A stretch of DNA of 45,577 nucleotides, filler included, from Jimgerdemannia flammicorona (taxonomy: Eukaryota): assembly GCA_003990765.1 (NCBI GenBank). It is 2 parts of 2 records of this genome, joined end to end, with 100 filler letters (N's around TTAATTAATTAA, not from the genome) between each part and the next. Parts side by side here need not be neighbours in the genome. Positions count along the whole stretch, not along the records: positions 1 to 22,740 come from RBNJ01001210.1; 1 more part is not named here. One strand, written 5' to 3'. The translations under genes were made by a program, and so were the position numbers. Below are positions 1 to 34,481 of this stretch, in pieces. Numbering within the stretch: position 1 is the first letter of the stretch; each line of letters opens with the position of its first letter. The notes beneath the pieces are model-generated. The model had not been told where the DNA came from. It saw only the letters and a program-made list of their open reading frames with translations, and ran no database searches.

Positions 1-188
1 CTGGTCTTACAGTTGAGCAAGTCCTCAAGAATGCACCAGAGGTCAGGCAAAAATTCCTGAAAGAAGCCAAGGAAGATACCAAGAGACTTCCAGTCCAAGG
101 ACCACACACTCAAGAACCTAGTACTATCCACACAGTCCATGAGAGCCAGCGACATGAACATCAATCTACAAGACTCGCCAATGGAAAA

Positions 189-530
189 GTGCATGGTGAA
201 AATGCCAGAATTCTCATCGATACTGGAGCAGCAGTATGCATCATCACCCAAAGAATGTTGGAGCAAATTGGATGGGGAATAGATGAAGGAACCAAAGCAA
301 GAGTTATCATGGCTGACAGATCAGCTTCCACACCCCTTGGACTTGTCAGAGATATCCCCATTCAAGTTGGAAAGGCCTGCCTCAATGTACCCAAAGCCAT
401 TGTGACCCCCACAACCTCCTATGACCTGATCCTGGGAACTGACTGGTTAAGCCAAGTTGGAGCCAATGTAGATATCAAGAAACAACTCCTGGTCTTCTCC
501 ATTCATAGACAGAAGCACAAGGTGCCCATT
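189..530 (+). pseudogene. Retropepsin aspartic protease of element A
   Basis: ARILIDTGAAVCII ... YDLILGTDWL. Confidence 0.93.
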
Positions 531-830
531 GACTTGAAAGGATTACCCAAAAAGACGAATCAAGCCTCAGAAACAGAATGGCAAGGATATGGTGACACCC
601 CCACTACTACCGAGGATGAAAGTGAGGCCAATTTCCTACAAGAACTAGGAAGTGATTTCGATGCCCCAAGGGACCAAGAAAGCGAACAAGAAGACTCTTT
701 CATTGGAGTTATTGGTGTTGAAGGCCTGGAAGAAAGCATTGATAGAGCCATTAATGCAAGGGCAGCACTTGAGTTTGCAGGACCTTCTGCTCAACCACCA
801 CCACCACTGGTAGAAAATTGGATCATGTGA

Positions 831-1640
831 GTCTTTCATCGAGGCATATGTGAACATTTCATCAGCTTCTACTCACCAAGAGATGATTGCAGCAATTGCC
901 GAATCCTGGATCTCAAGAAGGTTCCAATGCCAGAAATTGATGACAAGGATGAATTGAAGCAAGCACCATCCTACAGCCGAATACAACCTCCAATCCCGAA
1001 GACCTTCAAGAAGACCTATAAGGAAGGACAGAAGATTCTCACCTGCCAAACATTCAAGTCCCTTACCATCGAAGGAGAAAGCAACAGCTCTTACACTATC
1101 ACCCAGGCCCTCTAGATCACACAGCCTACTTATGACAAGTATCGGAAGAGATTCCCTACCAGTAGGGAGATCAAACAGTGAAATGAAGACTTTGTCAAGA
1201 AGGGACATTGTGATTGTGGAAAAACCTTTACCTGCTCCTGGTGTGAACATCGAGATATTCACCTCAGCAAAGATATCTACAAGAGTCGAGTCAAGAGAAA
1301 GGATCCCACCCTGCAAGAACCTCGAATTCGCTGGGCCTGTCAGAAGTGCAAAGAAATCAACCATGAAGGAGATTGCAAGTTCAAGAGCCAGACCTCTATC
1401 TGGGACCTACCATTGAAAGTTCTTGCCATCATTTGCTAGTACTGCTGCCCTCATCAAGGAAAAGAAGGTATCAATCTTGCCTTCATCCTTATGGAAGCTC
1501 TGGACCCTCTAGGAAAGACTGGATTCAATTACACAAGAAACTCAAAGACAGGAGCTCACTGGCCTTTCTTCAAACTGGAGTGCATGGACTTCTCACCTAC
1601 AATGGCAACAGCTGAAGTGCCATTTCTCAAAGCTCAACCA
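831..1640 (+). pseudogene. Unknown in-frame polyprotein domain between PR and dUTPase (Cys/His motif and F-box-like segment)
   Basis: Same frame as PR and dUTPase; GHCDCGKTFTCSWCEHRDIHLS (1203-1268), CQKC, SIWDLPLKVLAIIC*Y (1395-1442), EALDP..TGAHW; homologous segment in C1 at ~25760-26100 (-). Confidence 0.7.
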
Positions 1641-2051
1641 ATTATCCAGGTCAAGCTGCTTTCACCCTGGGCACAGCCACCTCTTGTATAAACAGAAGGA
1701 TCAGTTGGTTATGACCTCTGCCTCCCCTACCAAGCAAGAATCTGACCCAGAAGTACCAGGACTTTTGACCTACAGATCGTACTTGCTATACCATCTGGGC
1801 ATTATGGACAATTGGCCTCAAGATCCTCATTGGCAACCAAAGGAGTCACAGTAGAAGGAGGAGTCATCGATCAGGACTACCGAGGTCCCTTGAAGGCCAT
1901 TATCTACAATTCTAGTAGAACCAGCCAATTCTTCAGTCCTATGGAAGCCATCTGCCAAATTCTGTTTATCAAGACATTACAGCTGACCATCCAAGAGATA
2001 GACCAACTAGAAGATACCAACAGAGGACAAGGAGGCTTTGGAAGCACCAAT
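1641..2051 (+). pseudogene. dUTPase of element A (between PR and RT)
   Basis: All five trimeric dUTPase motifs: SVGYDL, ASRSSLA, GGVIDQDYRGP, EAICQILF, TNRGQGGFGST; two in-frame stops. Confidence 0.95.
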
Positions 2052-2509
2052 AGAAATCTACGGACACCACCTATCGAGGTTCATTTAGCAACAGTTGCTC
2101 AATTCCAACAAATGAGACCCCACATCTGCTGCCCAATCCGAGCAAGAGAAGACATCCTCCTGCAGCCCTACTAGCAAAAAGGCCTAGATGTGCACCTACT
2201 AGTAGAAGCAAACAACTTGATATTTGCACCATCACTGGAGCTTCAAAAGGAATACCACATCCTCCTGGCTAAAGAACGAATTCATGACCAGATGTCACCG
2301 ATCCACATCCCTATCAGAAACTTGGGATTCGAAGTGATAACTATCCCCAAGGGAACAACACTGGGATATTTCGAACCACTGATAGACACCTACGAGGAAG
2401 AAGTCTTCGAATTCTTGGGAAACAGCAAGTCCTCTCCGGTGAGACTGATGGTACCAGGGAGGAAGACTCAGCAAATTCAGCAACCAAAGCCATCAACATC
2501 AAGACAACT

Positions 2510-3890
2510 CTAACCAAGGACCAGCAACAACAGATACAGGAGTTGATAGAGGAGTATAAAGATATATTTACCACCACATATGATAACTTCCCACCATATC
2601 AATATGGAGAACACCCTATACATACTGGAGATGCAAGACCAATCCGACAATGACCCTACCGAACACCACATCATCTGATTGAATTCGAACAACAACACAT
2701 AGATGAAATGCTATGAAATGGAGTCATCAGACCATCATCAAGCCCCTGGGCTTTACCAGCAATCATAGTACCAAAGAAAGGAGGATGGAGATTAGTTGTG
2801 GATTTCAGAAAACTCAACAAAGTCACCACAGAAGATACCTACCCACTGCCAAGAATTGATGACCTCATCAATACCCTTAGAAAAGCCAAATACATGACCA
2901 CTACTGACCAGTTCCAAGGACTCCAAGTAATACCCATTGCCAAAGAAGATATCTGCAAGACGGTCTTTATCACCAGACAAGGACAGTATGAATACCTATG
3001 AATGCCCTTTGGACTCTGCAATGCACCTGCCTCATTCCAACAAATGATGAACTATGTCTACCGAGACCTCATTGGAAGAAATGTACTAGTATATATAGAT
3101 GATGTAATCATCTACTCTGAGACATTAGCAGCATTTACAAGACCTCTGCAAAGTATTTAATACCATTTGAAATTCAGGACTCAGACTCAATGCCAAGAAG
3201 TGCTTCTTCGGAAAACATCAAGTCGAATATCTGAGATATGTTGTCTCAGCTCAAGGAACACATGCTGATCCCCGCAAGGTGGAGAAAGTCAAGAACTACC
3301 CAACCCCGACCTCAGCAAAGGAGACCCTATCTTTCCTTATGCTGGCATCCTACTATCGATGATTCATCCCAAGGTTTTCAGATAAGGCAGCACCTCTCCA
3401 AGATATCTCCAAGAAGGACCAACCATTCTACTGGAAAGAAGGACAACAAAAGTCATTCGACCTACTCAAGAAGGCCCTTACTGAAGCCCCTGTCCTAGTG
3501 CAACCAGACTTTGGCAAACCATTCATCCTGGCAACTGATGCCTCAGCCTTAGGACTTGGATCAATTCTGTCTCAGCAAGATGACCAGAAGAGGGAGCATG
3601 TTATCGAATATGCTAGCAAGACTACAAATGAAACTCAAGCAAACTATGGAGCCACTAAGTTGGAATGCCTAGCAGTAGTTTGGGCTGTAGACCACTTCCG
3701 ACACTATCTCTTGGGAAAGAGATTCGCCCTCATCACTGACCATCAAGCTCTACAATGGTTGTTCAACAAGCCGGAGCCCTCTGGAATCTTCGCTAGATGG
3801 ATCATATCTCTGCAAGAATATCAGTTCACTATTGTCTACAAGAAAGGTGCTAAGAATTCCAATGTCGATACCCTGTCAAGAATTCCATAA
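2510..3890 (+). pseudogene. Reverse transcriptase and RNase H of element A
   Basis: [32 protein letters not shown] (3092-3103), LATDASALGLG, LECLAVVWAV, TDHQAL. Confidence 0.95.
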
Positions 3891-4109
3891 AACTGACAAG
3901 AAGGGAAAGAGCCCCCACAAGAGAAGGCTACTTCCCGCTCACCCAAATGAACCAAGAATTGTGCCTCACCCTCACCTAGAGTCTGTACCATAGAAGCTTC
4001 AAGAAAGGAATCCAACCAGCCCACAAGTTGTTTATCCAAAGAAATTTTAAGAAATTCTAAGAAGGTGATGGTGAACTTTGGAGAGTAGAAGGAGAGCAGT
4101 ACACCCGAG

Positions 4110-5166
4110 TTCCAAGAGAAGAAGAAATATTGAAGATCCTGATAACAAATCATGACCCAAATGCACACCAAGAAATTGGCACCACAATCGCAAGAATCAA
4201 GAAGCGATACTGGTGGCCCAAGATGAGAAAATAAATTTCAATGCACATTCAACAATATGATACCTGCCAAAGATACCGACAAAAGCCTACTGACAGAGTA
4301 CCATTAATACTGATTACAGCACCAGCTGGAGTCTTTCAAAGACTGGGAATAGACATTATTGGACCCCTACCAGTAACCAGCCAAGGAAGACACTATATCC
4401 TCACTATTGAAGACTACCTGACAAAATGGCCTGAAGCCTTTGCCATTGAGACTGCTGATGCCCAGACAATTATTGGGATCCTGTATGATGAAATTTTCAG
4501 CCACCATGGTGTGCCCAAGGAAATCATTACAGATCAAGGCCGAGAATTCATCAACCAAGCCATGAAGACCTTTGCGAGCAACTTCAAGATCAAGCTACGA
4601 CCAACAACAGCCTACCACCTACAGGCAAATAGACTTACTGAACGAATGAACCAGACCATCAAGCGAGGTCTCAGTAGAACCGGAGATCAACTAAACTGGG
4701 ATATCTATCTACCGGCAATTCTGTTCAGCATCCGTACCTCTAAGGCAACTGCTATCCAACAGACCCCCTTCTATTTGGTGTATGGCTGAGAAGCATATGA
4801 TCCTACTGAACCAGTCCAGCTAGATCTGTCAAAATGAGTCACAGAAGAGATCATTCGGTTACACGACATACACCACAAGCACAAGGATTTATTGCCAAGG
4901 CACAAGAATGACAAAAGAGGTACTACAACTGCAAAGCTGACCTCGAACCCCTACTCATTAGACAAAAGGTTCTGGTGTACTGTACCATCATAGAAGGAAA
5001 TTGGAGTATCAAGCTTGAACCAAAATGGGAAGGCCCCTATCTCATACACCAAGTATTCCCAAACCACACTTATCAACTCAAGACCTTGGATGGAGTTATA
5101 CTCAAGACTAAGATACACTGCAACTGCATAAGACTCTACTACTCAAGAGAAGCAAAACGCATTTAA
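4110..5166 (+). pseudogene. Integrase of element A (HHCC, DDE core, C-terminal SH3-like part; no chromodomain)
   Basis: RYWWPKMR..DTCQ, GIDIIGPLP, ITDQGREF, LTERMNQT, TPFYLVYG, KLEPKWEGPY. Confidence 0.93.
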
Positions 5167-5479
5167 ACAATCCTGTTCACTCTGTCTGTGTCATCTCTAT
5201 TGGAGATACAATGGATGTTTCACTCGGAACTCAAGAAAGCCAAGAACATTGGAACCAGACTCAAGCCCATCTATGTGACAGGCATTGTTACTAAGAAATT
5301 GCCTCAGATTACAAGAAATACTATTTCCAATGGGTTTGAACCCCCAGCCATGACTATGGGAGGCCTTGCCCTAGACAAGGATGGCCAGTCCTCACAAATG
5401 CACTGACATTCTGCTCATCCCTTGAGTTAAGACCACCCAACTCTGTGTAACCCTCACCGCCAAGGATGGCTCTAATTTT

Positions 5480-5491
5480 GCAAGAGGCAGA
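5480..5491 (+). promoter_or_regulatory. Degenerate polypurine tract of element A
   Basis: GCAAGAGGCAGA immediately before TGTG; preceded by the AGGA-loop hairpin also found before the PPT of B and C2. Confidence 0.7.
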
Positions 5492-5572
5492 TGTGATGTC
5501 TATAATCGACCGTGTCCAAATTCGGAGTATCCTGTGACCACAAGATCAGATGACATTATGGTGCGATAACTG

Positions 5573-6694
5573 GTGACCAGCCCAAACCGTCAAGTGATTT
5601 CACCAAAAGAAGACAAGATGATCCAAGCCAAAATGAAGACCACATTATTTAAGGAACCATACTCTGCCTCAGGGATCAGTATCAAAGAACCAAGTACTCA
5701 CCACACAATACCTCCCATTCGCCGATCCAACCAGACCTCCCACCACTCTACCCCTTTGCCTGGCCCAAAGACCCTGATCTTTGAAGCTATCAAGAAGGCC
5801 ATCTGGTGCCCAGATACTTCCAAACACTTGAACTTCTATATCGAGGACCTTGGACACTTCATCAACTACTGGTATACAATGACCCAACAGCTCAAAGACA
5901 CTACCGAACGAATGACCCTCTGGCATGACTACGAAATCGGACACCGCCTTCACAATGAGACTCAAGAAGACAACCAGGAAGACCTCATTACTGAATTGAT
6001 AACCACCAGCCAGCTGATCAAGAGAGCTCTCCATGTTCATCAGATATTCTGCTACATCCCCTAGGCCATAGCATACTTGCAAGGAGTAACAGCCGGCAGT
6101 CTTGCCCATCTCTCAACTGAAGATGCAGACTGGATAGAATCAGAAGTAGCCAACTCTATTGGTAGCAACTGGGTCACTGTAGGAAGCCAACAAACCAAAC
6201 CTACTTAGCCAGGTTTCCACACCACCCCACTCCGAGACAACCATCAAGGTCACCTAATGAGTCTTATGGAGATATTTGAAGGACTGCCCATTACCATAGA
6301 AGTACCCATTGGAGCTACCCCAACCACCCACCACCCTGTCAGCCACAATTTACATCTCATCATTTGGGAACCGAATCAAGAAGAAGCTCAAGAGGTCCCT
6401 GTCTTTGAAGAGGAAGCCCAAGAACTCCAAGACCCTGCCCCTGAAGAAACCCCCTCTGATACTGAAACTGACAAGTCTTCAGAAGAAGAAGAGGAGCAAC
6501 AGAGAGTCTACCAGTCCTCTGTCCGCATTCAAGCTGTTCAAGGGTTGGAGAATATTGTTGAAGATGACTGGCCACTTTTCTACCCCCTCATCTCTTGGCC
6601 AGCACTTCCCCCTTTTGAGGAGAGGTATGATGAAGAAGAAATCATAACCCAGCAAGATTTGCCCACCATGGATGAAGGGTACTATTCCCTCTAG
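5573..6694 (+). pseudogene. LTR-embedded accessory ORF (ORF-X), ~370 codons, conserved core plus acidic C-terminus
   Basis: ORFs 5573-6064 and 6257-6694 and the gap between them are one frame broken only by TAG at 6062 and 6206; core LWHDYEIGHRL...ALHVHQIF matches post-integrase ORFs in C1 and C2; true start codon uncertain. Confidence 0.75.
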
Positions 6695-6735
6695 AAATAC
6701 CACCTATCAGCCACAAGAATTGTACAGCCTTTATG

Positions 6736-7040
6736 TCAGCATTTTGTCAGCAAGTCTGAATCCAGCATTGCTACCCAGCACAACCATTTCCAGCATTGCT
6801 ATCCAGTGCCACCATTTTCAGCATTTTGTCAGCAAGTCCGAATTCAGCATTGCTACCCAGCACAACCATTTCCAGCATTGTTATCCAGTGCTACCATTTT
6901 CAGTGTTTTGTCAGCAAGTCCGAATCCAACGTTACTACCCAGCACAACCGTTTCTAGCATTGCTATCTAGTGCCACTGTTTTCAGCATTTTGTCAGCAAG
7001 TCCAAATCCAGCGTTGCTACCCAGCACAACCATTTCTGGC
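6736..7040 (+). repeat. 82-bp tandem repeat (~3.7 copies) in U3 of LTR A
   Basis: Units start at 6736, 6818, 6900, 6982 (TCAGCATTTTGTCAGCAAGTC...), each with two internal CCAGCATTGCTAYCCAG subrepeats. Confidence 0.95.
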
Positions 7041-7167
7041 AACAATCGTCATATCCATATCCATCCATGTCAGTAAGTCAGCCCTTCATATTGTGCAAGC
7101 CAATAGCATAGTGAAGTTCGCCACAACATAGTATACCTTAGCCCCCCCCCCATAGCTAGCAAATTTG

Positions 7168-7199
7168 TATAAATAACCCTATATCTTAGAGTGAATAAA
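7168..7199 (+). promoter_or_regulatory. LTR TATA box and polyadenylation signal
   Basis: TATAAA 7168-7173 and AATAAA 7194-7199 followed by CCTCAG, same layout as B LTR (TGTATAAATA...AATAAAGCCTCAG). Confidence 0.7.
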
Positions 7200-7202
7200 A
7201 CC

Positions 7203-7500
7203 TCAGTCAGACAGTTTTACAGAGAAAACACACTGCCTCCAAGAGACTGGAAAATTCTGAGAACAAAATAACAACCTAGAGCAACAGATCGCTCAGAAGT
7301 TTGAGTTAAGGAATTTCTCTTGCCACCTGAATTTCAAGTTTTGCCACCACGAAAAGGATTCAAGACCACAGACCACCCACAATTCAGTCAGACAGTTTTA
7401 CAGAGAAAACACACTGCCTCTAAGAGAACGGAATTCCAAGAACAAAATAACTAGAGCAATGGATCACTCGAGATTTGAGTTAAAGAATTTCTCTTACCAC
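7203..7500 (+). repeat. ~120 bp direct duplication inside LTR A (7203-7326 and 7384-7500)
   Basis: Both copies begin TCAGTCAGACAGTTTTACAGAGAAAACACACTGCCTC and end GAATTTCTCTTRCCAC. Confidence 0.9.
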
Positions 7501-8559
7501 AGAAAGAAAGAAAACATTACCCGACTGCTGACTGCTGCCATTCAAGACCACCATTCGAGATTCAAGACCCCAGCAATACAGCTAAAGAACCCAAGGAACC
7601 CAAGTTACCCAGCCAAAGGATACAAGACCGCTGCCAAAGATCTGAACGACTGCCAGAAACCTTTCAAGTTAACCAAGATGGATGAGTGAGCCATCAACCT
7701 CCATTTTCCCCAACCTACTGCACCATGGACTGCTTTAATTGACCACATAAAGAGCAAGACCATCAAGACCATCGCTGCCAAGTTATTTGCCACCCTTTTC
7801 CACTAAACAATTGAGCCATCGATGTTCTGAGCCAATGAACAATCGAACTCCCACTATCAATTATCATACGAATCGGATGAACCGATCACATGACCATCGA
7901 CCTGCAACCATCACAAATGCACTCAGTCATATACCGCGCACTCCACCAAGTGGCACATTGAGCCATGCCAGAAGCAACTAGGAATACAAACCCAATGCCA
8001 CAATATATATTATATATATTATTCTATATATATCCATACTTACTATAGTAATAGTAATTACTATTGAACTTAGATTTATATTTTTAACCTTATTGGTACT
8101 TCTTACCTTATCTATATAACCTGTAGAATACTTTCTTATCATCATTATTGCTACTATTTCCTTGATGTATCTCTTCATTAATGAGACTTATTATTATATA
8201 AATATAGTCTATAAGTTTTTTGCTTTTATATATAGCTATTATTATAACATTATATATCTCAGAGTAGTTCCTTATAAGGGTCAGAATCTTGTCTTCATTA
8301 CTGATATACTTATACTGACTCCTTGATTTTTTTAGTTGTGATATCTTAGTATAGAGTAGTATATAGTCTTAGAAAGGTATCTCTTACTAGCTGCTAACTA
8401 GGGCTCATAATCTTTTATTGTATCTTAGTTGAAAATATAGAGTAGAGAAAAAAGAGCAGTATTGTTTTTATTAAATATATATCTATTTATATATTGAGTA
8501 ATATAACTCAAAGATGACATAGTTATATAAAAGCTACATTATTGAGATATAATAATGAG

Positions 8560-9139
8560 AATTTCAATAAGATAGGATACCAGATGGCCTATGATGGTTC
8601 TTTTTGATAAAATAATACTATTTTAGTTTTAGTTAGTTGCTTGAGAGTACACAGAATTCATCTTATCAGAAAATATATATCCTTCTATATCAAGGTTCTT
8701 GAGATTCTTATTAGATTCAAAGAAGAGATTTCTAGGATTAGATAGTGCAAATATTTCAAAGATGGTCTGCTCTCTTGATTTTAGGATGAGATTCTTATAT
8801 AGCTTAACTAGTTAGTATTATACTTATTGAGAAGTATTCTTCTTAAAGTAGCTGATCTAGAGGAGATATACTTTTTTCTTATCTGAGCTTTTAAATTCTT
8901 TAGTTTGTCTTATACCTTGAGTCAGTTCAGAGACTTCTTATAGTTGGAGAGTCTTGACCTTTATGAAGATTGCTTGTATAATCTTTACTCTTTGTAGATT
9001 TAGTTCTATTCTATACTACTATTGTTCAGAATGACTCTAATTTTGTCTGTGTATTATTTCTCTTTCTATATTTATTTCTTATCTAGTAAGTCTGGATCTT
9101 GAGATCAGTTACATATAAGTTTCTTTGAGTGATTATATT
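8560..9139 (-). mobile_element. Heavily mutated family-C gypsy fragment (dUTPase C-terminal part and downstream linker)
   Basis: Colinear similarity to ~24975-25560 (C1). Confidence 0.88.
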
Positions 9140-9542
9140 TGTAACATTTTAGTGTAGTTTATTCCTTTTCTTTGTCTTTCTCCAATATTCTATGACCTTC
9201 TGGTACTTTCTGAATGCTTAGAAATCCTTTCTTGGTGCCAAGCATTAACTAGTACTTATTTAGTTAGTCCTGGAATGTCCTGGAAACTTGTAGAACTTTA
9301 TTTGTCATCATTTGTCATCTTTGCCGTGAACTTTCCTCTTGGTATTTTCCTTCGATTTCTCAGATCCTTCCAGATCCTTCTTTCAGATCTTGTATAAATA
9401 TCCCCTTTGTTCTCATAAATAAAGCCTCAGAATATTTTCTCCCAGAAATCCTTCGAGAACACTTGAATCCTTAGTATCTCTTTGAGCTACTTAGGACTAC
9501 CAGAATTAGTCACTTCCTCATTTAGAAACTAGAACTGTTACA
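9140..9542 (+). repeat. 5' LTR of element B
   Basis: Direct repeat of 14767-15169 (about 21 differences by hand count), TGTAACA/TGTTACA termini. Confidence 0.98.
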
Positions 9543-9544
9543 CT

Positions 9545-9556
9545 TGGTAGCAGTGG
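9545..9556 (+). promoter_or_regulatory. Primer-binding site, initiator tRNA-Met type
   Basis: TGGTAGCAGTGG 2 nt after the LTR; complementary to the ...GCUACCA end of eukaryotic tRNA-iMet. Confidence 0.8.
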
Positions 9557-9610
9557 TGAAGTTACACCTAGCCTTATCAAGACACCTCTCAAGATATCAG
9601 TCACAACACT

Positions 9611-10600
9611 ATGGAGGACAATGGGTGGAACCCTTCATACAGTACCTACAGTCCAGGCAATGCCTCTTACCACCAGCAAGAAGAAGAAGAGGAACAGCCA
9701 ATCCCCACCCAGTCAACTGGGTCCATCGAAAGTTTTTTGCAAACTGCATTAGCCCAGATCGCCCAACTTCAAGAACGTGTAGAAAGAAAGGAAAGCAAGG
9801 CCTCCGCTCATACCTCCGCACCTCCACCAACATCAATACATCCGACAGCAGTCACTATCAAGCCTCAGAAGCCTGACACCTTTGATGGTCAAAGAGGAGG
9901 ACTGTCTACCGATGCCTGGCTTTTCCAATTGGAGCAATATGGAGAACTGACCAATTTGGAAGAAACAACACTAGTCCAATTTGCTGCCACACTCCTCCGA
10001 GGGAATACTGCAATCTGGTGGTGAAATCATGTCCAGAATACCAGATTCTCTAGCCGAATCAAGACCTGGGGTGAATTCTCTGATGCTATTCAAGGCCAAT
10101 TCAAACCAGTCAACAGCACCAAGGCTGCGCGAGACCATCTGGCAAATGTCAAACAACTCAAGTCTGTACAAGCATAAAATGCACAATTCCTGTTAATCCT
10201 GCTAGAATTACCACATGTCACTGAAGATGAGAAGGTGGACAAGTACATCCAAGATTTGAAAGGCCAAACCCGAGTTCGTGTTGAACTAGAAGAACCCAAG
10301 GACCTAGACACAGCAATGAAAATTGCTGATAGGTTTGATGTCATCACCTATGGTCACCGCTTTGAACAGAAGAGACTGCCTTTCAACAACAACAACAACC
10401 ACAGAAGGGAGGAACCCAAAGTCAGAACTGTTGGACCTGCCCCCATGGACCTAGACACCATTGACAAGAGCAAGAAAGGCAAACTTACACCTGAGGAAAA
10501 GGAGCGCCTCAAGAAGGCTGGAGCCTGCTTCTTTTGCCATCAGCCTGGTCACATTGCAACCAAATGTCCCAAGAAAACTGCGGAACCAAAGAGGATCCTA
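9611..10600 (+). pseudogene. gag of element B
   Basis: KPQKPDTFDG, AWLFQLEQY, LRGNTAIWW, GPAPMDLD, zinc knuckle CFFCHQPGHIATKC; in-frame stops. Confidence 0.93.
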
Positions 10601-10639
10601 GTCCTGTCCAAAGACACTCAAGGTCAACTAGTCGAACAA

Positions 10640-11057
10640 AAAGTTGTACTCAATTTCATACAAGTCAACCCCAAGGCCCAGATCCCTCAAGCACAGTCAG
10701 AGGAGCCATTGGTTTGGACCTTCAAGCAGTACAACAAGTCACTATTCCGGCACATGAAGAAGGCTCATTCCAACTGGCCTTTCAGTCGAAATCTCCAAAG
10801 AACATTATGCAAGAATTGCACCAAGATCTGGCCTCAGCTTCAAGCACTCATTGGATGTTGGTGCTGGAGTCATAGACCCTGACTTTCGAGGTGAAATGCA
10901 AGTCCTGCTAGTCAACCACAAGAACCAGCCATATACTGTCAATGAAGGAGATAGAATTGCATAGCTCATTCTGGAGCGAGCCACTCTACCAGTTGTCAAA
11001 GAAGTTACCAAGCTGTCTTCCACCAAGCGAGATCAGAAAGGCTTTGGCAGCACTGAC
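10640..11057 (+). pseudogene. dUTPase of element B (between gag and PR)
   Basis: GAIGLDL, IAPRSGLS, GAGVIDPDFRGE, GDRIA*LIL, KRDQKGFGSTD; two 1-nt deletions and one stop. Confidence 0.95.
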
Positions 11058-11093
11058 AAAGTTGCAAGCATAGCTGAGAACTGAGCCAATTCA

Positions 11094-14000
11094 ATGCTCA
11101 TTTTCAAAGGTCTAGTCAAGGGACAAGAACTAGATGTTCTCATAGACAGCGGAGCTATTGGGAACTTCATCAACAAGAACCTCATCGACAAGCTCAAGAT
11201 TCTCACCAAACCAGCTGGCAAGAATGGTGGAGTTGTCACTATAGACGGCACCACCTTACCAATTGACTCAATTGCCACTAAACTTCTCCTCAAGATCCAG
11301 AAGTACTGGGAACGTTTAGATTTCGAGGTAGCACTACTAAGAGACCATGACCTGATTCTAGGCAAACCCTGGCTTACATGGCACAACCCTCAGATTGATT
11401 GGACCAAGAATGAAGTCACCTTGATTCAAGATGGAGTCAACATTACCATCAAACCAGACAAGACTCAGATGAGAACCCCAATTGCTACCCTTTCAGCAAT
11501 CCAGTTCAAGAAGACCCTCAAGAAAGCTACCTGTGCCTTTGTGGCACTGATCCGACCAAAGAAAGAAGACAAGAAGCTATCAATTGATGAAAGCATCAAG
11601 TTACTACTGAACAAGTACAAGGATGTCTTCCCAGACAAACTACCTGGTCTACCACCTTCAAGAGACCATGACCATGAAATCAAGTTGGTACCTGATGCAG
11701 CTATACCTAAGAAGAAAATGTACTGTATGTCTCCACTCGAAATTGAAGCAGTCAAGAAGGAACTCAATGAACTCATCGAGCAAGGAGCCATTCAGCCAAG
11801 CAAGTCACCCTTTGGCTCCCCAGTCCTATTTATCAAGAAAAAGGATGATACTCTGCGAATGTGCATAGACTACCGAGCACTCAACAAGATCACTGTCAAG
11901 AACCACTATCCACTACCACTCATAGATCAAATCTTTGATGCTCTCAAGAATGCAAAGTACTTCACCAAGATTGATCTCACCTCTGGGTATCACCAAATTC
12001 GAATCAAGCCAGAAGATATACCCAAGACTGCCTTCATGACACCCTTTGGACTCTATGAGTTTCTAGTCATGGCCTTTGGTCTCACTAATGCGCCAGCAAC
12101 CTTTCAAGACCTCATGCAAACTGTCTTTAAGGATCAGCTCTATATCTTTGTACTTGTGTACATTGATGACATCCTGATCTTCAGTAGCACCGAAGAAGAA
12201 CACCTCAAGTACATCGAACAAGTCCTCAAGATCCTCCGCGAGAACAAGCTCTATGCAAAGCTCAAGAAATGTGAATTTTTCAAGGATCAAGTCGAATACC
12301 TTAGACACATTATATCAGCCAAAGGAATTCAAGTAGACCCAAAGAAAATACAAGCCATTGAACAATGGCCTGTACCAGCAAACCTCACTGAACTCAGGTC
12401 CTTCCTTGGTCTGGCTGGATACTACTGTCGATTTGTCAAGAACTTCTCTGGCATCACAGAATCTTTGACAAACCTCCTGCGAAAGGAACCCAACTCTGAC
12501 CTCTATGTTCCCTACATCTGGGATATCTTCTGTCAACAAGCCTTTCAAGAACTCAAGAACTGCCTGACCCATGTACCTGTCCTTAGAAACATGGACCCAA
12601 ACTTGAAGTTCACGGTCACTACAGATGCATCTAACTTTGCCATTGGTGCAGTCATTTCTCAAGATGATGGTCAAGGACACCGACCTATTGCCTTTGAGTC
12701 AAGAAAATTGTCCCCAGTAGAACAAAAGCTGGCTACTCATGAAAAGGAACTCCTGGCAATCATACATGCCATCAAGACCTAGCGATACTATCTAGAAGGA
12801 GTTGAGTTTGACATGATCACTGATCACAGATCCCTTCAGTATATCAACACTCAACCAACCCTTTCTCGCCAACAAGCCAAGTGGAGTCAACTGCTTCAGA
12901 CCTTTACCCCAAACATCATCTACAAGCCTGGCAAAACTCTAGTTGTACCAGATGCACTTTCAAGGAGACCTGACCTTGCCACAATTTTACAAGTCATCAT
13001 GGTACCTGAATTCCTCAACCAGATCAAGAAGGCGTACGAACAAGACTCTCTGGTTCTACAAAGAAACACCAAGGAATTCAAGGAAAAGTACACCATCAAG
13101 GACAACCTCGTATACTATCAAGACAAAGTATATATTCCTGCCAACCCTGAACTATAATATAAGATTCTCCATGAACACCATGACTCTCCACTAGCTGGCC
13201 ACCTTGGAACTGAGAAGACCATCAAGAATATCCAACGAGACTACTACTGGCCAAACATGCTCAAGGAAATCAAGGAGTATGTCCAAAGCTGTGATCTTTG
13301 CCAAAGAAACAAGTCAAGCAACCAAGCATCTGCCGGTCTTCTACAACCCTTGTCAATTCCGACCAAGAAGTTCGAACAAGTCACAATGGACTTCATTGTA
13401 CAACTCCCATGAACCAAAACAGGCTATGATACTATTGTTGTGTTTGTGGACTGTCTCACCAAGATTACAATCGCCAAGCCAACCACAACCAATGCCACTG
13501 CCCCAGAAATTGCAAGAATCTTCTTCAAGACTGTCTTCCACCATTATGGACTTTCCCGAGTAATTATCAGTGACCGTGACCCCAAGTTCACAAGTCACTT
13601 CTGGCAAGCACTCTTCAAGACTCTTGGAACCCAAATTGCTATGTCTATGGCTTTCCATCCTCAAACCGATGGACAGACAGAGCAAATGAACAGAACACTT
13701 GAACAAATGCTCAGAAACTACGTGTTCTATGAGCAAGATGATTGGGACTACTATCTGACTTACGCCGAGTTCGCCTACAATAATGCCAACCAATCATCAA
13801 CTGGCCTTTCCCCATTTCAGCTACTTCATGGTCAAAACCCCAAGACCCCTGCAAGTTTAGTCCAATTCCAGCAATCCAGTCATACATAAGTCTCCACAGC
13901 CCAGAACCTTATCGACAAAATGGATTCTCTTCTCAAGATCGCCACTACAAACCTGCAAAAGGCTCAGCAATATCAAGCTAAGTATGCAGATAAGAAGCGG

Positions 14001-14453
14001 CAAGATGTCACATACAACATTGGCAATATGGTTCTACTCAAAGCCAACAACATCAAGGCTCAATCTCAAGTCAACCGCCAGTCAGCCAAATTCCAGCCCA
14101 AGTACCTTGGACCCTTCGAGATCACTGAGCAAGTCTCTATCTGGTCTTACCATCTCAACTTGCCAACAACCATGCATATACACCCAGTATTCCATATGTC
14201 ACAACTCAAGGCCTGGAACCAGTCACCCCCATACCCTGGCTGAATTCCGACACCATCAGCACCAGTCATAGTTGAAGACCACATCAAGTATGAAGTCGAG
14301 AAAATCTTAGACAAACAAGTCCAATACCATCGCACAGAATACCTAGTCAAGTGGATGGGTTACCCTGAATATGACGCCACCTGGGAACCTGCCGCCAACC
14401 TCAAGAACTCCCAAGACCTCATCCAAGAGTTCGAGCAAAAAGGAACTCATTGA
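11094..14453 (+). pseudogene. pol of element B: PR-RT-RNaseH-IN-chromodomain
   Basis: [61 protein letters not shown]; several stops. Confidence 0.97.
14289..14440 (+). other. Integrase C-terminal chromodomain
   Basis: YEVEKILDKQVQYHRTEYLVKWMGYPEYDATWEPAANLKN, aromatic cage Y/W/Y present. Confidence 0.95.
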
Positions 14454-14753
14454 CTGCCCGTGAGGTTCTCCCCTTGGATAGTAGATGACCTACTGTGCTG
14501 ATCAGGCACATTATGCATTGGGGCTCTCTAAGGGATACAGCATCAGAAGTAAGAGATACAGGAGAACCCTATAAATCCTGCAACCAATGAGGTTTGAACC
14601 AGTTCTCATCTGATCAAGATGATACTTTGGCCCTCACCTTATACAAGGATGGCCAATCCTTGCCAATGAGTCGGTATAGTTAATTTGAAGTTTCTTTTAG
14701 TCTTATTGTTTATCATGTGTATCTTTGAGAATTCAACGAGGACGTTGATTCTT

Positions 14754-14766
14754 AAGGAGGGGGAGA
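14754..14766 (+). promoter_or_regulatory. Polypurine tract of element B
   Basis: AAGGAGGGGGAGA abutting the 3' LTR. Confidence 0.95.
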
Positions 14767-15169
14767 TGTAACATTTTAGCGTAGTTTATTCCTTTTCTTT
14801 GTCTTTCTCCAATATTCTATAACCTTCTGGTACTTTCCGAATGCTTAGAAATCCTTTCTTAGCACCGAGCATTAACTAGTACTTATTTAGTTAGTCACTG
14901 AATGTCCTGGAAACTTGTAGAACTTTATTTGTCATCATTTGTCATCTTTGCCAAGAACTTTCTTCTTGGCATTTTCCTTTGATTTCTCAGATCCTTCCGG
15001 ATCCTTCTTTCAGATCTTGTATAAATATCCCCTTTGTTCTCATGAATAAAGCCTCAGAATATTTTCTCCCAGAAATCCTTTGAGAACACTTGAATCCTTA
15101 GTATCTCTTCGAGCTACTTAGGACTACCAGAATTAGCCGCTTCCTCATTTAGAAACTAGAACTGTTACA
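14767..15169 (+). repeat. 3' LTR of element B
   Basis: Direct repeat of 9140-9542. Confidence 0.98.
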
Positions 15170-18100
15170 TGTTTCTTAAAGAATTCATACTTCTTGAGCT
15201 TGGCATAAAGCTTATGTTTTTGCAGGATCTCCAGGACTATTTGAATATATTTGAGGTGTTCTTCTTTAGTTGTACTAAAGATCAGGATGTTATCAAGATA
15301 TATCAACAGGAAAATAAATAGTTGGTCCTTGAATGTCTTATTCATCAGAGTCTGAAATGTGGTGAGTACATTGGTGAGACTAAATGTGAAGACCAGGAAT
15401 TCATAGAGTCCAAAGGGGGTCATAAACATAGTCTTGGGAATGTCTTCTGACTTAATTCAAATCTGGTGATATTCTGACATAAGGTCTAACTTGGTGAAGT
15501 ACTTGGTATTCTTGAGAGCATCAAAGATTTGATCAATCAAGAGTAATAGATAGCAGTTCTTGACAGTGAGTTTGTTGAGTGCATGATAGTCTATGTATAT
15601 TTGCAGGGTACCATTCTTCTTCTTGACAAATAGAACTGGTGAGCTATAAGGAGATTTGCTTGGCTGGATGGCTCCTTATGTAAGTTGTTCTTCTAGTTCC
15701 TTCTTGACTGCTTCAACTTCAAGTAGTGATATGTAGTACATATATTTCTTGGGTAGTATAGCTCCTGGGGTCAGTTTGATTTCATAATCAACTTCTTGTA
15801 TAGGTGGTAGACCAGATAGCTTGTCTAGAAAGACATCCTTGAATTCTTCTAGTAGTAGCTTGATGTTTTCATTAACTGATAGTCTCTTGTCTTGTTTCTT
15901 GAGGTGAATTATTATAATAAAGACATGTATTGCCTTCTTGAGTGCTTTCTTATATTATATAGCTGATAGTGTTGCAATCTGGGTCTTACTCATAGTCTTG
16001 TCTGTCTTGATCATAATGTTGGCTCCATCTTGAAGTAGAGTAACTTCATTCTTATACTAATCAATATCTGGATTGTGTTTCATGAGCCAGGGTTTTCCTA
16101 AGATCAGGTTATGATCTTCTAGTAGTACAATCTCAAAGTCTACTTATTCCTAATATTTCTGGATCTTGATGGGTAGTTCGGTAACAATTGACTCAATGGA
16201 GTATAGAGTACCATCTGCAGTGACTATACTATTATTCTTGGGTGCAGGCTTGGTGAGGATCTTGAGGCTTTCGATGAGATTCTGATTGATGAAGTTCCCT
16301 GCAGCTCCACTATCTATGAGTACTTGAACTTCTTTTCCTTTGATTAGGCCTTTGAAAATGAGCATAGCTTGAGCTCAATTTTCACTAAGACTTGCTGCTT
16401 GATCAGTGCTGCCAAAACTCTTTTGATCTCATTTGGTTTCAGGGAGTTCTTGGACTTCTATAATCTTAAGTTGACTGGCTTTTTCCAGGATAATTTGTGC
16501 GACTCAGTCTCCTTCTTTAACTGTGTAGTCTTGATCCTTCTAGTTGACAAGCAAGACTTGAACTTGTCCTCAAAAGTCTGGATCAATAATACTAGTACCT
16601 ATATCTAAATGATGTTTGATACTGAGTTCTGATTATGGTGCAATTCTAGCATAATGTCCTTTAGGGCATTGAACTGCAATTCCAGTAGACACTAGAGTAC
16701 AACCCTTGGCTGGAATAGTGACTTATTTGACTGAGTGTAGGTCAAGACTAATGGCTCCTTCTGTTTGATATTGAGAGACCTGGGCCTTCAGATGAAGTTT
16801 CTTGATCTTGAACTCAAGTTGACTGATAGTGGAATTGACAAATATATCCTTGGACAACATGGTGACTGGTCTTGAGAGTTCGCTAGTCTTCCTAGGATAT
16901 TTGGTTGCAATGTATCCTGTTTGGTGATAGAAAAAACAGGCTGTGGATTTCTTCAGGTGGTCCTTTTCTTCAGGGGTGAGCTTGGTGTTCTTTTTGTTCA
17001 TAGTGTCTAAGTCCATTAGTGCCAGGCCAACTGTCCTTGGTTGGTTTCTGTAGCAGTTCTCAAAGTGGTTCTTCTTGTGGCATTCTGGCTCAAAGCAGTT
17101 ATCAAAGGTGATGATATTAAATTTATCAGTGATTCTCATAGCTTTATCAAGAGTTTTGGGCTCTTCTAGCTCAACCTTGACTTGTGTATTTCCCTTCAGA
17201 CCTTGGATATAGCAGTCTATCTTTTCATTCTCAGATACTGCTGGTAGCTTGAGTAGGATTGATAAGAATTGTATATTATAGCCTTGAACAGACTTAAGTT
17301 GCTTGATGTTTACTAGCTTGTCCCTGGCTAGCTTAGTGGCATTAGCAGACTTGAACTGCTTGTGAAGGGCTCTCTTGAAAGCTTCCCAATCTCTGATTCA
17401 TATATATGAGTATACAGATATAACCATAATATGATTGCACTACCAGATAGCTATATTTCCTTGGAGGAGTGTGGTGGCAAATTAGACTTATATGTCATCT
17501 TCCATTCTTATAAGTTTGAAGTATTGGTCCAACTAGAAGATCCATACATCTGTAGATAGTTCTCCTCAATGGCCATCAAAGATATCTGGCTTAAGTGGCT
17601 TGAAACTGACTAGTGCTATGGCAGGATGTGATGTTTCTATAGTTTGTATTTTCTGGTGTTCTACTTGTACTTGCAGTTCTTGAATTTGGTGGGCCATAGT
17701 ATTGATCATATCTTCTATGTTGAGCTGTAATCCTTCTACTTCTTCTATAGCAGAGGGGTCTGACTGATAGACTGACTCTTCATGGCTCATTTCAGGTTCA
17801 TGTGACTAGTTGTGACTGGTTTCTGAATTCATGTCAGTTTCTTAATAAGGCAAGGTATAATGACACTACTGCTACCAAGTGTAACAGTTCTAGTTTCTTT
17901 AAGAGAAAGTGGCTAAATCTGGAAGTTCTAGTTGATCTAAAGTAGTTTGAAGAGATACTTAAAGGTTCAAGTATTCTTGAAGAATTTCTGAGAGAAAATA
18001 TTCTGAGCTTTATTTAGGTAGAGAACAAGGATATTTATACATAATCTGAAAGAAAGATCTGGAAGGATCTTGGAAAGAAAGAGAAATGCCAAGAAATAGG

Positions 18101-18343
18101 TTCTCAGCAAAGCTGACTAATACTATTCTACAATGTTCTGAAAGGTTCCATAACTAGCTAAGACAAGATACTTGGTACCAAAAAAAGACAAGAATGTTCT
18201 AGTAGTGTCTGGGCACTGAGAGAAGGTTTCTAAGTAAGTAGAAGATAATGGAACATAGTAGAATGTTCAAGAAATAATAAGAAAAACCTAACTAAAAGAC
18301 ATAAAAATATATTAAGACTAAATATGACTGCAAAATTGTTACA
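15170..18343 (-). mobile_element. Older B-like element B' (5' LTR, PBS, gag, dUTPase ~16400-16820, PR, RT), truncated inside RT at the B junction
   Basis: [50 protein letters not shown] all match B; PBS TGGTAGCAGTAG at 17866-17877 (-). Confidence 0.95.
17880..18343 (-). repeat. 5' LTR of B' (464 bp)
   Basis: TGTAACA...TGTTACA termini; its 3' half resembles the B LTR. Confidence 0.93.
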
Positions 18344-22740: not shown

Positions 22741-22840
22741 NNNNNNNNNNNNNNNNNNNNNNNNNNNNNNNNNNNNNNNNNNNNTTAATTAATTAANNNN
22801 NNNNNNNNNNNNNNNNNNNNNNNNNNNNNNNNNNNNNNNN
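22741..22840. other. Artificial assembly gap/linker (N44-TTAATTAATTAA-N44)
   Basis: Exactly 100 nt, symmetric, central 12-mer gives stops in all six frames. Confidence 0.97.
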
Positions 22841-22859
22841 AAAAAAAAAAAAATATATC

Positions 22860-23300
22860 TATTCCATCATCTTCATTATCTGTACTATGGTCACTCTATT
22901 CCAAAGACTCCTCTTCTTCCTCAGAAAATAGAGTCTCAACTTGATGGATGATACTGAGGTAGATGGGTAGGATCATTCTTTGGAGATTATTCAGAGAGAA
23001 CTGGGCCTAGATCAGAGCTGAAGAGTTCCATTTGTAGATTGTATATAGTCTTTCTGCAGTAGTAGTGTCCCTTCTGTTCAGGCCAGTAGTATTGCAGACA
23101 TAGACCAGGTCTGAGAGGGGAAGATTCTGTAATTATTCTCCAATTGCATAGTAGGCCTACAGCTGGTGGACCTAGAGTAGTCTCTTAGCCAGAGTGAGGT
23201 TCTTTTAATGAACCTGGATTCTTTGGAGATATGTTCCATTGAGTGCTCAGAACTGTAGCAGAGAAATTGGTAGAGCTTAGAGAGAACTAAGGACAAGGGT
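22860..23300 (-). pseudogene. Post-integrase accessory ORF-X of C1
   Basis: L*AYYAIGE*L...AERLYTIYKW...acidic tail SEEEEESLE*SDHSTDNEDD; matches A ORF-X and C2. Confidence 0.7.
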
Positions 23301-25294
23301 GGGGAGAGGTATATCTTGAGGTAATTGATATATATTGGTATTCTCAGGGTTCATCCATCCATACTTCTTAAATAGATGCTAGTTCTTCTGATATTGTATA
23401 CAAGATAAGGTCCTTTCTATTTAGGCTCTAGTTTGGTAGCAAAGTTGGTTTCAATTATGCTTCTCCAAACTAGTATTTGATCTCCAATCTTAATATTCTG
23501 ATCCTTCTACTTCTGGTCAGAGTACTTCTTTTGTCTTTCTTAAGCTTTGATAATCTGAGCTTGGACTTGATTATGTAACTGTTCTGCCTTCTTGAGGAGG
23601 CCTCCAAAGTCCTTATAGTCAGTAGTTTTAGTTTTCTTAGCAAATATCATTTCAAAGAGCTTTTGTTTGGTGGAAGCAGTAGGGGTATTCTGAATTTCCC
23701 ATAGGATCTCAGGTAAGCAGAGGTTCTAGTTAGTAGGATTGACTCAGGCAAGTCCTTTCTTGATGGTCTGGTTCATTTTTTCTACCATACTATTGGTCTG
23801 AGAGTAGTATGATGTAGTGGATTTTATGGATTTGAATATAACTTGGAATTATATTATTGATGAATTCTGTGCCTCAGTCAGAGATAAGTTCTTCTGAGGG
23901 TCCATATCTGAGTGTAAGTCTATGGAGAAGGTCTATAATAGTTAAGATATCTGTAATTTCTATTGAAAAAGCCTTGGGCTACTTGATCAGATATTTTATA
24001 AATACAAAGATATACTTATTTCTTCTTGATATAACTGATAGGGGTCCAATTACATCTACTTCCCATCTCTGAAAGATATTGTCTAGTGGTATGATTGGTT
24101 GTAATAGTGCTTAGTAGTTCTTCCTTTCTTAGTACTTCTGATAGGTATTATATTTCTTGAGTATGTTCTAGACTTGTGTTCTAATATTGGACCAATGTTG
24201 GTGTATTGTTTGCAACTTTTCTTCTATATTTACTTGTCCTTGATAGGCTTTCTGGTATTCTTTTCAGATGAGATCTTCTTATACTTAAAGAGTTTGAGGA
24301 GCTTCCTTTAGAGTGTAGTTCCTCAGTATATCCTTCTTCTGGTTCATTAGAGTTGGCAGAAAAGTATATTAACATTGTTGTAAGCTTTCTCTGCTTTGTG
24401 GATAATAGTGATTTTGTAATCCTGAAGGATAAAGATCCAGCAGACTTGTAAAAAGGTCTATACTGCTGAAGTATCTAGTATCTTGTAACTGGTCCAAAAG
24501 GTCATCAATTCTGGGCAAAGGATAGGCATCCTTTTTGATTACTAAATTGAGTTTTCTGTAGTCTACACAGAGTCTCCATCCTCTTTTCTTTGGTATAATA
24601 AGTATAGGACTGGTCTAGGGGCAGGTTGAGGGTCAGATGACTCTATTGTCTAAGAGTTCTTAAATGTATTCCTTTTTGAATATCTTTAAGTGATGGAGTA
24701 TTCTATAGGGTTTCTACTGAATAGATATTGCATTTTCTATATTTATACTATAGTGATATGATGAGTTATAAAGCAGGTTATCATAATTTGTAGTGAAGAT
24801 ATCTTGATATTTGTTGAGGAGTTCTACTAGATTTTGCTATTGCTGGAGTATCAATTCTTCTCCAATGTTGGTGGAAGGCTTCACTGTCTCCTGGATTGCA
24901 GAGGGGCCTTTTCTTTCTTCTGGGACCTTTTGCTATTTCCCAATAAGTTGAGTTCATAGACTTCTCTATAGGTTTAGTTGAGAAAGAGCACTAGATGTCC
25001 TATGATGGTTTCTTTTGACAAGATAATGCTTTCCCAACTCTGGTTGGTTGCTTGGGAGTACACTGGGTTCATTTTGTCAGAAAATATGTATCCTTTAATA
25101 TTTAGATTTGAGATATCTTCATTAGGTTTGAAGAAGAGGTTTCTGGAGTCAGGTGGTACAAAGATTTCGAATGTGGTTTACTCTCTAGACTCCAGGATGA
25201 GATTCTTGTACAGTTTGACAGATTGGCAGTATACTTGCTGAGAATTATTCCTTTTAAGGTGATTGATCTGAAAGAGATATACTTCCTTCTTATC

Positions 25295-25700
25295 TGAGCT
25301 TCTGAATCCTTCAGCTTGCCTTGTTCCTTCAGTCAGTTTGGAGACTTCTTGTAATTGTGGGGTCTTGACTTTTATGAATACTGCTTGGGTAATCTTCTGT
25401 CCTCTAATGATTTAGTACTATTCTGTACTACTGTTGTACAGAATGACCTTAATTTCACCTATATATCCTGGATCTATAATTCCTCCTTCTATAGTTATTT
25501 CTTGCCTGGCAAGTCCAGATCTTGAGATCAGTTGGATATAAGTTCCTTGGGGTGGCTTTATGGCTAGTCTAGTTTTGAACATCAGTGTTCTTTCAGGCTT
25601 GATGGGTTTATTCTCCAGACTGTAAAGGTTATACCCTATATCTTCTTGGTGAGCTTTGGTCAGGGGTTTGGCCTTGGGATATAGCAGGGCATACTGGGCA
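25295..25700 (-). pseudogene. dUTPase of C1 (between PR spacer and RT)
   Basis: IGYNLYS, ISRSGLA, GGIIDPGYIGEI, GQKITQAV, TRQAEGFRSS. Confidence 0.92.
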
Positions 25701-34195: not shown

Positions 34196-34253
34196 TCTCT
34201 CCTCTACACCATTTTATGTACCTCTCATGCCTAATCTTCTCCTGTTCACAACG

Positions 34254-34272
34254 CCCCCCCCCCCCCCCCCCC
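34254..34272. repeat. C19 homopolymer at the left edge of the CpG-rich island
   Basis: Direct read. Confidence 0.95.
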
Positions 34273-34481
34273 TGACTGGAGGTGCAATGCATTTGAACTT
34301 ATTATTGCTTTGCTTCAAAACACGGAAAAGGAATCTGAAACCCGGTGCCTCTAGTCGCAATCCTCCACTCGCGCGCGTTTAACCTCTTAGGCTAGTCATT
34401 CGTCCCTGAGTCACGTGTTGAGCAGTTCCCGGCTCCTGTCCTTTCTTTTACTTCCCCCACTAAATTCCCCCGCCTCGTTTC

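Follow-up and report, generated by a model that had tools for sequence, protein, structure and literature searches.

The 45,577-nt stretch of DNA (filler included) from Jimgerdemannia flammicorona assembly GCA_003990765.1 analysed here, referred to as the window, is a nest of decayed long terminal repeat (LTR) retrotransposons. The element at its left end, element A, belongs to the Ty3/Gypsy group and carries a third open reading frame (ORF3) downstream of pol. Judged from its sequence relatives, ORF3 (5708-6694) represents a genuine accessory gene in mutated form, and its orphan family is conserved under coding constraint; the copy in the window is dead. We favour, with modest confidence, a layout in which pol would be followed by a dead LTR junction, ORF3, a polypurine tract (PPT) and an LTR of ~1.3 kb, the gene thus being internal to the element and not within its LTR. 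An earlier interpretation of the same DNA made from the sequence alone, without database searches (the sequence-only reading), had proposed that the gene had moved into the U3 region of a 2.5-kb LTR.

The accessory gene and its relatives

The plus-strand frame from 5570 to 6694 holds 375 codons, ends with a TAG at 6692-6694 and is interrupted internally only by TAG codons at 6062-6064, where the relatives have tryptophan, and at 6206-6208. The sequence-only reading had reported one ~370-codon frame at 5573-6694 broken by two TAGs; that frame is real, but the gene starts at 5708 and not at 5573, since all full-length relatives begin with MPP or MPA at the codon that reads ATA in the window. A hidden Markov model (HMM) of the A family matches the window at 5708-6688 (E 1.4e-130). 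The gene, which follows the pol stop (5405), precedes the TATA box (7168) and is conserved in 15 sequences, qualifies as a post-pol ORF3, and we interpret it as a third frame that a dUTPase-bearing Ty3/Gypsy lineage carries after pol.

A HMMER search over 1.84 billion representative proteins returned 7 matches at E<=0.001 (top 2.2e-90), and a profile search of a 5.8-billion-cluster collection returned 10, led by the intact protein P0009 (325 aa, 76% identity), whose cluster also holds the intact P0017 (324 aa) and P0021 (331 aa). Relatives from soil metagenomes are intact: near ones have 324-331 aa and ~76% identity, and distant ones, on other metagenome contigs, have 247-342 aa and 25-33% identity. 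Two contigs with distant members, L001 (291 aa) and L002 (323 aa), were compared as DNA, and in both the ORF is open from Met to stop. An alignment of 15 sequences at 21-97% identity contains 12 invariant and 10 nearly invariant columns. Differences were fewest at the second codon position and most frequent at the third in each of three DNA pairs, with values for positions one, two and three of 0.46/0.36/0.60 for L001 against L002, and of 0.56/0.44/0.66 and 0.56/0.50/0.69 for the other two, a pattern typical of coding sequence. Further metagenome contigs of 792, 420 and 357 nt span the ORF gap-free at 4-8% divergence.

All 17 proteins that were looked up originate from JGI/IMG or ENA metagenomes and none is informatively named; the host lineage of the elements that carry the accessory gene is probably fungal. 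Scanning of viral contigs with the A-family profile, integrase and RNase H yielded no relative, and a 17-nt core-promoter word in the phage-like contig L003 was discarded as a chance match. Literature word searches found neither this protein family nor an LTR-embedded gene of a fungal retrotransposon, a result that does not by itself show absence. That non-coding LTR DNA would happen to be open over this frame is extremely improbable: the lack of any match in Pfam, the PDB or the ESM Atlas would suit such an origin, but it is refuted by E-values down to 1e-124 to intact relatives, by the conserved motifs and by the coding pattern of codon-position differences.

Decay of copy A was characterised at T/C and A/G sites, 17 of the 34 checked being in CpG context; these 34 are drawn from 36 such rows among the 41 rows listed (482 further rows lie outside), 5350 and 5351 having been left out. 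Classical repeat-induced point mutation (RIP) was rejected as the cause because half of the checked sites are CpG, indicating decay of the CpG type. RIP-like indices are present in older AT-rich copies.

The spacer between pol and the gene is hypervariable, as seen in a metagenome contig covering 5468-5806, whose 339 nt show 34 mismatches and 17 gap letters. The last ~20 nt ahead of the start codon are common to A, L001 and L002. Upstream of these, L001 and L002 have TATAAAAG at 58-80 nt from the ATG, and element A has TATTTAAG at 55-62 nt. Expression would proceed through a short subgenomic mRNA terminated at the LTR poly(A) signal (AATAAA at 7194), starting either from the gene's own TATA box ~60-80 nt upstream of the ATG or by splicing, a spliced message being equally possible.

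A comparable frame exists in family C, a second dUTPase-bearing family whose copies C1, C2 and C4 are spread over both strands of the window. Translation of the C1 frame, with X at its 8 stops, matches intact proteins of 172 (P0025) and 137 aa at 61% identity, and a C-type profile search collected 12 proteins. Family C, then, also encodes a genuine acidic-tailed protein of ~172 aa after pol. Just beyond this ORF the 3' end of C1 runs, after a T-run, into two 44-N runs (22741-22784 and 22797-22840).

Homology between the A and C frames had been proposed in the sequence-only reading from short motif strings, and these are indeed present on the minus strand, in C1 from 23156 and in C2 from 32444 and 32355 with a frameshift. 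A tblastn comparison of A with C gave nothing, and the A-family HMM run over the window found no match in C1 or C2, nor outside A, even at E<=100. By hhalign, P went from 0.072 through 0.041 to 0.0029 as the C profile was deepened, with a final probability of 10.7% over 42 columns, and each time the alignment selected YEIGH...AKKIHQIF against YAIGE...A-x-R-LYTLY, the very stretch that had been named. None of 200 column-shuffled C profiles reached the score of 28.4 (maximum 24.7), and the reversed profile scored 14.4. The match exceeds chance in profile comparison only, and the proposal is weakly supported; because the two frames share their position and acidic tails, and their elements are related through a common LTR core, we regard homology as likely but not established.

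Position of the gene relative to the long terminal repeat

In family C the LTR starts are fixed by copies, which begin with TGTAAT at 30896 (-), 38508 (+) and 32081 (-) and have unrelated left flanks. Aligned from this start, the C1 and C4 LTRs score 81, a value that none of 500 shuffles reaches (27 +/- 5), and the C2 LTR scores 59 (0 of 500), weaker through heavy decay. The C2 ORF stop lies 40 nt upstream of its LTR start, which places the C ORF outside the LTR, as the sequence-only reading had said.

The metagenome contig L001 appears to be organised in the same way. The top PPT/TG of the whole contig, 12 purines out of 12 followed by TGTAAT, stands 11 nt past the ORF stop, and this purine tract is nearly identical to the verified PPT of element B, an unrelated Gypsy element of the window with two LTRs; the L001 LTR thus probably starts after the ORF. 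Ahead of the ORF, the L001 counterpart of the junction at 5492 in element A has decayed: its TG is lost and a copy of the R-start motif follows directly. This motif is found on both sides of the ORF over 28 nt, with a score that none of 200 shuffles and none of 445 natural windows attains. The region before the ORF in L001 looks like the picture of a dead, shortened LTR.

On this pattern, the most likely LTR of A would start at 6721, by positional analogy with L001 (11 nt past the stop), C2 (40 nt) and L002. The distance from LTR start to TATA box is ~175-295 nt in L001, L002, C1 and C4; in A it would be ~450 nt from 6721, of which ~250 are tandem repeats, and ~1680 nt from 5492. A second candidate, the PPT-like run at 6617-6632, is weak as a start, since coding for an acidic tail yields such runs by chance; the protein tails of close relatives diverge with indels just past it. 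We suppose that the working PPT and 3' LTR start would fall in the interval 6628-6721, where the gene ends or just past it, with the LTR reaching 8002, and that the gene would be internal as in family C and L001. The ~300-nt spacer would then be the relic of an older PPT/LTR junction, and a plausible origin for the arrangement is read-through or 3' transduction beyond the old LTR, which then decayed.

The junction at 5492 is, as far as alignment can tell, a real or former PPT/LTR junction and not a chance look-alike, because it occupies the same alignment columns as the verified junction of B and has a decayed version in L001. The register is given by a conserved block at the end of pol. This block (5361-5403) matches L001 8-52 at 36 of 43 nt (84%), a score reached by 0 of 500 shuffles, and an 18-nt part of it recurs in element B at 14643-14660, ~100 nt upstream of the B LTR; A 5330-5400 against B 14590-14670 was likewise equalled by 0 of 500 shuffles and ranked top among 290 B windows. 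Over the last ~15 pol codons, conservation of the DNA is far above that of the neighbours, A and L001 agreeing at 84% although their accessory proteins are ~30% identical. Situated ~95 nt before the (old) PPT and overlapping the end of pol, the block may be a cis-acting signal.

Several observations weigh against the layout that we favour. The junction after the ORF in A is poor, with only AAGAA before TGTACAG at 6721, and comparison of the A post-ORF start (slice from 6724) with the LTR starts of L001, C or L002 gave no significant similarity; in L002 the ORF stop is not directly followed by a purine run. The sequence at 5480-5493, in contrast, is a respectable PPT/TG, in the same columns as the verified junction of B (TGTAACA, 14767) and ~95 nt past the pol-end block. 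The opening 9 nt from 5492 match the reverse complement of the closing 9 nt at 8002 in 5 positions and differ from it by transitions in the other 4; we estimate that chance alone would give ~0.8 such sites among the TGs of this region. A canonical TATA box before the ORF occurs in only two of the three DNA sequences. The LTR boundary of A is one that we infer and do not see, and the functional assignment given below is drawn from composition.

A rival is the arrangement of the sequence-only reading, in which 5492-8002 is a 3' LTR of 2.5 kb whose U3 holds the gene with its own TATA box, so that both LTRs, and solo LTRs too, would carry a copy; element A would then retain the state after insertion of the gene into U3, or would have reverted to the upstream PPT. 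We consider this doubtful. For it speak the PPT-like run and TGTG at 5480-5495, the positional homology of 5492 with the B junction, the termini TGTG...CACA with their next mismatches all transitions, and the weak post-ORF junction of A; the PPT/TG and the TATA box on which it was built are present as sequence, as is AATAAA. It is opposed by the LTR starts after the ORF in family C and probably in L001, by the decayed pre-ORF junction of L001 with an R-start copy next to it, as in a dead LTR, and by a U3 that would measure ~1680 nt compared with 175-450 nt in relatives. The metagenome contig spanning 5468-5806 also runs unbroken across 5492. A likeness of A 5492-5680 to the L001 LTR start (reached by 2 in 500 mononucleotide shuffles, and over its first 100 nt by 5 in 500) was set aside, as pol windows of A score equal or higher. 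No second copy of 5492-8002 was found in the window, only internal repeats, and the stretch is thus not confirmed as one repeated unit. Placement within the LTR is not supported, and a start after 6694 is the more parsimonious in view of C, L001 and the U3 lengths.

Were 5492 nevertheless a working start in the A lineage, a case to which we give little more than a one-in-four standing, the LTR would be a self-contained unit of TATA box, 328-codon regulator gene and poly(A) signal. Each LTR, solo LTRs included, could then express a trans-acting factor for the family, and L001 and C, with their starts after the gene, would show the position of the PPT, and hence the content of the LTR, shifting across an accessory gene. 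Solo LTRs would in that case be expression units; from a few literature searches on the point, we know of no retrotransposon whose solo LTRs express a gene.

An unlikely alternative treats the ORF as a passenger, a piece of a host gene acquired through read-through and conserved for a time with no role in the element. The flanking LTR relic of L001 fits such a transduction, and Pfam, the PDB, the Atlas and Foldseek, being blank, assign the ORF no function. However, two protein database searches gave no homologue beyond short element-like metagenome contigs, the gene has stayed intact in lineages that share just 25-33% identity, its start, core motifs and tail motif included, and the analogous ORF of family C has likewise been retained.

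Two further lines were tried for locating the boundary and rejected. Metagenome depth (~50 over pol, 145-196 over 5834-7368, 7-21 after 7369) resembled an LTR-like excess, but contigs chosen by matching one stretch cover that stretch, the step at ~5834 is no candidate boundary, and the core promoter alone reaches ~900, which shows the figure to reflect conservation across families. Contig ends and loose ends at 5294, 5401-5403, 5603, 6662-6666 and 7199, considered as repeat boundaries, are explained by local divergence.

The LTR core of A is conserved in the C LTRs and in L002 (L002 score 43, 0 of 200 shuffles). It consists of the TATA box, then AGTGAATAAA, then CCTCAGTC, with the poly(A) signal between the TATA box and the presumed R start, and is located at 7168-7214, 30560-30610 (-), 31800-31850 (-), 38770-38815 and, in L002, at ~1225-1260. 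In a soil metagenome run the ~60-nt core has a contig depth of ~900 versus ~50 for pol, and many families appear to share it. The copy number of the 82-bp repeats upstream varies in relatives, metagenome contigs jumping back by 119 and 54 nt, and one metagenome contig omits 188 nt of the R-start duplication (7252 to 7441). Short motifs recur in L001 before the ORF and within the LTR (258-276 and 1336-1354; 1420-1435 and 1455-1470), a GCCAC-rich motif is repeated upstream of the L001 LTR promoter, and a CAGTG-M-CCACC-like word is found in the 82-bp repeats of A and at the start of the presumed L002 LTR; such recurring motifs could be candidate binding sites.

The predicted protein and comparable systems

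The A-type protein is, by prediction, soluble, with a basic N-terminus, a helical core and a long acidic tail that is probably disordered. Its core motifs are WHEYEIGH and AKKIHQIFRHAP. The net charge of the first 40 residues is +5 to +8 in P0009 and P0010 and only +1 in P0004, whereas all three carry a strong negative charge over their final ~120 residues. Most relatives close with an acidic run and then a conserved hydrophobic motif, P-x-x-LNF-L. Kyte-Doolittle means over 19 residues peaked at 1.07 in P0009 and at 0.64-0.94 in three further proteins, so there is no segment resembling a transmembrane (TM) helix. Neither the signal peptide and/or TM helices of an env-like ORF3 nor any env family of Pfam was found, in line with the sequence-only reading, which had excluded env. 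That reading also fared well in its description of acidic tails in A and C1, which are present there and in C2, and in its central proposal of a soluble accessory protein in a dUTPase-bearing Ty3/Gypsy lineage, given the conserved and intact relatives.

Pfam gave no family for the window pieces, nor for 5 relatives at E<=10; a sequence profile search of the PDB gave 0 matches and the ESM Atlas no usable match. Two AlphaFold models were poor (mean predicted local distance difference test, pLDDT, of 45.1 and 51.0), mostly helical in residues 1-200 and unstructured beyond ~225, and with these poor models Foldseek against the PDB returned 0 matches at E<=0.001. The composition of the tail, acidic with a short hydrophobic motif, resembles that of many activation or adaptor domains, and the protein may be regulatory or an adaptor. 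As specific roles, we tentatively put forward a transcriptional activator working through the acidic/hydrophobic tail, which would be Tas/VP16-like in function; a helper in RNA export or packaging seems improbable, as does, to a like degree, an antagonist of host silencing, and what is left would fall to some other function.

Extra frames of this general kind have been described in several groups. The bdelloid rotifer elements Juno, Vesta and TelKA have varied post-pol ORF3s and a dUTPase between protease (PR) and reverse transcriptase (RT), and ORF3s are usually expressed from a spliced message (PMC5408684). Fungal Gypsy elements are annotated with an 'add. ORF' of unknown function, and dUTPase between PR and RT occurs in fungal elements (PMC2864245). 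Compared with the ORF3s described in these sources, the A-type gene is likewise lineage-specific and placed after pol but before the promoter of the 3' LTR, in an element with dUTPase between PR and RT, and a separate message is expected for it too. It differs in that the protein, with no TM segment and no Pfam domain, falls outside the types described there (env-like, TM, GDSL, DEDDy), and in that the gene is preceded by an apparent dead LTR junction. The CERV protein of the Caenorhabditis elegans Gypsy element Cer1 is a novel regulatory protein made from a spliced mRNA, with an experimentally shown role in export of genomic RNA (PMC10309623). The A-type protein is also novel, element-encoded and free of known domains; the likeness is to the published description of CERV, and a regulatory role is experimental for CERV only.

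The genes considered next belong to complex retroviruses. Retroviral genes encoded in U3 include sag of mouse mammary tumour virus (MMTV), and nef of human and simian immunodeficiency viruses (HIV/SIV) overlaps U3. If 5492 were the true LTR start, the A gene would lie, like sag, between the PPT and the LTR TATA box. It has, however, no sequence similarity to sag or nef and lacks a signal or anchor segment as in Sag, and placement in the LTR is contradicted in sister lineages. The foamy virus protein Tas (Bel1) is expressed from an internal promoter. By analogy, the A-type protein would be soluble, encoded near the 3' end, acidic in its C-terminal region and served by a candidate internal TATA promoter, and the short motifs common to the pre-ORF region and LTR of L001 might be compared with this system; there is no sequence or fold match to Tas, and the host is fungus-like and not vertebrate.

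The accessory-gene family described here is new and orphan and belongs to a recognised general type, that of post-pol extra ORFs. Extra genes of LTR retrotransposons are raw material for the regulators of complex retroviruses, and to our knowledge very few have been described from fungi and almost none has a known function. Two small orphan families are defined here, A-type (~325 aa) and C-type (~172 aa), in the same place in related dUTPase-bearing Gypsy elements. The intact soil-metagenome copies are candidates for element-encoded regulation or counter-silencing in a host with C-to-T decay of repeats, and the dead LTR junction ahead of the gene suggests a route of gene capture.

Element A and its surroundings

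Coordinates of the features are collected in the table below. The order of domains in element A, PR-(dUTPase)-RT-RNase H-integrase on a single strand, is that of Ty3/Gypsy (Metaviridae); Pfam E-values were 2.7e-38 for RT_RNaseH, 3.2e-22 for dUTPase, 3.6e-12 for rve and 4.6e-12 for gag-asp_proteas. The right end at 8002 is marked by a fall in GC from ~0.44 to 0.26.

Table. Features of the window, with positions counted along the whole stretch.
Feature	Position	Strand	Remarks
Element A	1-8002	+	Ty3/Gypsy; left end missing, window begins within PR
Element A pol	1-5405	+	stops and frameshifts; translated frame continues to TGA 5403-5405
Element A pol domains (Pfam)	PR 3-827; dUTPase 1746-2171; RT 2717-2998; RNase H 3363-3887; integrase 4235-4786	+	
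Pol-end block of element A	5361-5403	+	conserved with L001, partly with element B
Candidate LTR start 5492	purine run 5480-5491	+	10/12 purines, then TGTGATG
Spacer between pol and ORF3	5492-5707	+	TATA-like TATTTAAG at 5646-5653; conserved A/C-rich leader just before start
Accessory gene (ORF3)	5708-6694	+	decayed copy, 328 codons; ATA at start codon position
Candidate LTR start 6628	6617-6632	+	GAGGAGAGG-TA-TG, TG at 6628 and 6631, within last 22 codons; 10/12 purines, 6 G
Most likely 3' LTR of A	6721-8002	+	~1.28 kb; TGTACAG 26 nt past stop, ends GCCACA
Tandem repeats	6736-7041	+	82 bp, ~3.7 copies, upstream of TATA box, enhancer-like
LTR core of A	7168-7214	+	TATAAATA 7168-7175; AATAAA 7194-7199; R-start motif TCAGTCAGACAG 7203-7214
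R-start duplication	7203-7500	+	period ~181 bp; 7203-7326 repeated at 7384-7500
Element B	9140-15169		two LTRs, 403 nt, 94.8% identical; local standard for junctions
C1 C-type ORF	22853-23330	-	8 stops in 146 codons read; 3' end of C1 cut by N runs
C2 C-type ORF	32082-32560	-	frameshifted; stop 32122-32124; C LTR start 32081 is 40 nt on

Downstream of element A, 8003-9139 is an AT-rich remnant of 26% GC with RIP-like dinucleotide indices. Within it, 8579-9131 has a 75% match at 24990-25554, in the dUTPase region of C1, so the right end of A adjoins an old C-like element. The window at 34000-38100 has 45-52% GC and several ORFs of 90-177 codons on both strands, with no Pfam match at E<=0.01, and may be an intron-bearing host gene or other unknown element.

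On the minus strand of 29410-32081, the C LTR from 32081 to ~30950 is followed by ~45 nt of primer-binding site (PBS) and leader sequence as in C1 and C4, then TTAT and the next C LTR at 30896. C1 would accordingly lie in or right after the leader of the element on the C2 side, the two either standing in tandem or C1 having been inserted into that leader. The LTRs of element B have the termini TGTAACA...TGTTACA; a 13-nt polypurine tract adjoins its 3' LTR, and its PBS, initiated by TGG 2 nt beyond the 5' LTR, is initiator-Met-like. An inverted, more diverged copy of the B family (15167-18121, ~70-78% identity) adjoins element B and ends within RT, which suggests a nested or head-to-head insertion.

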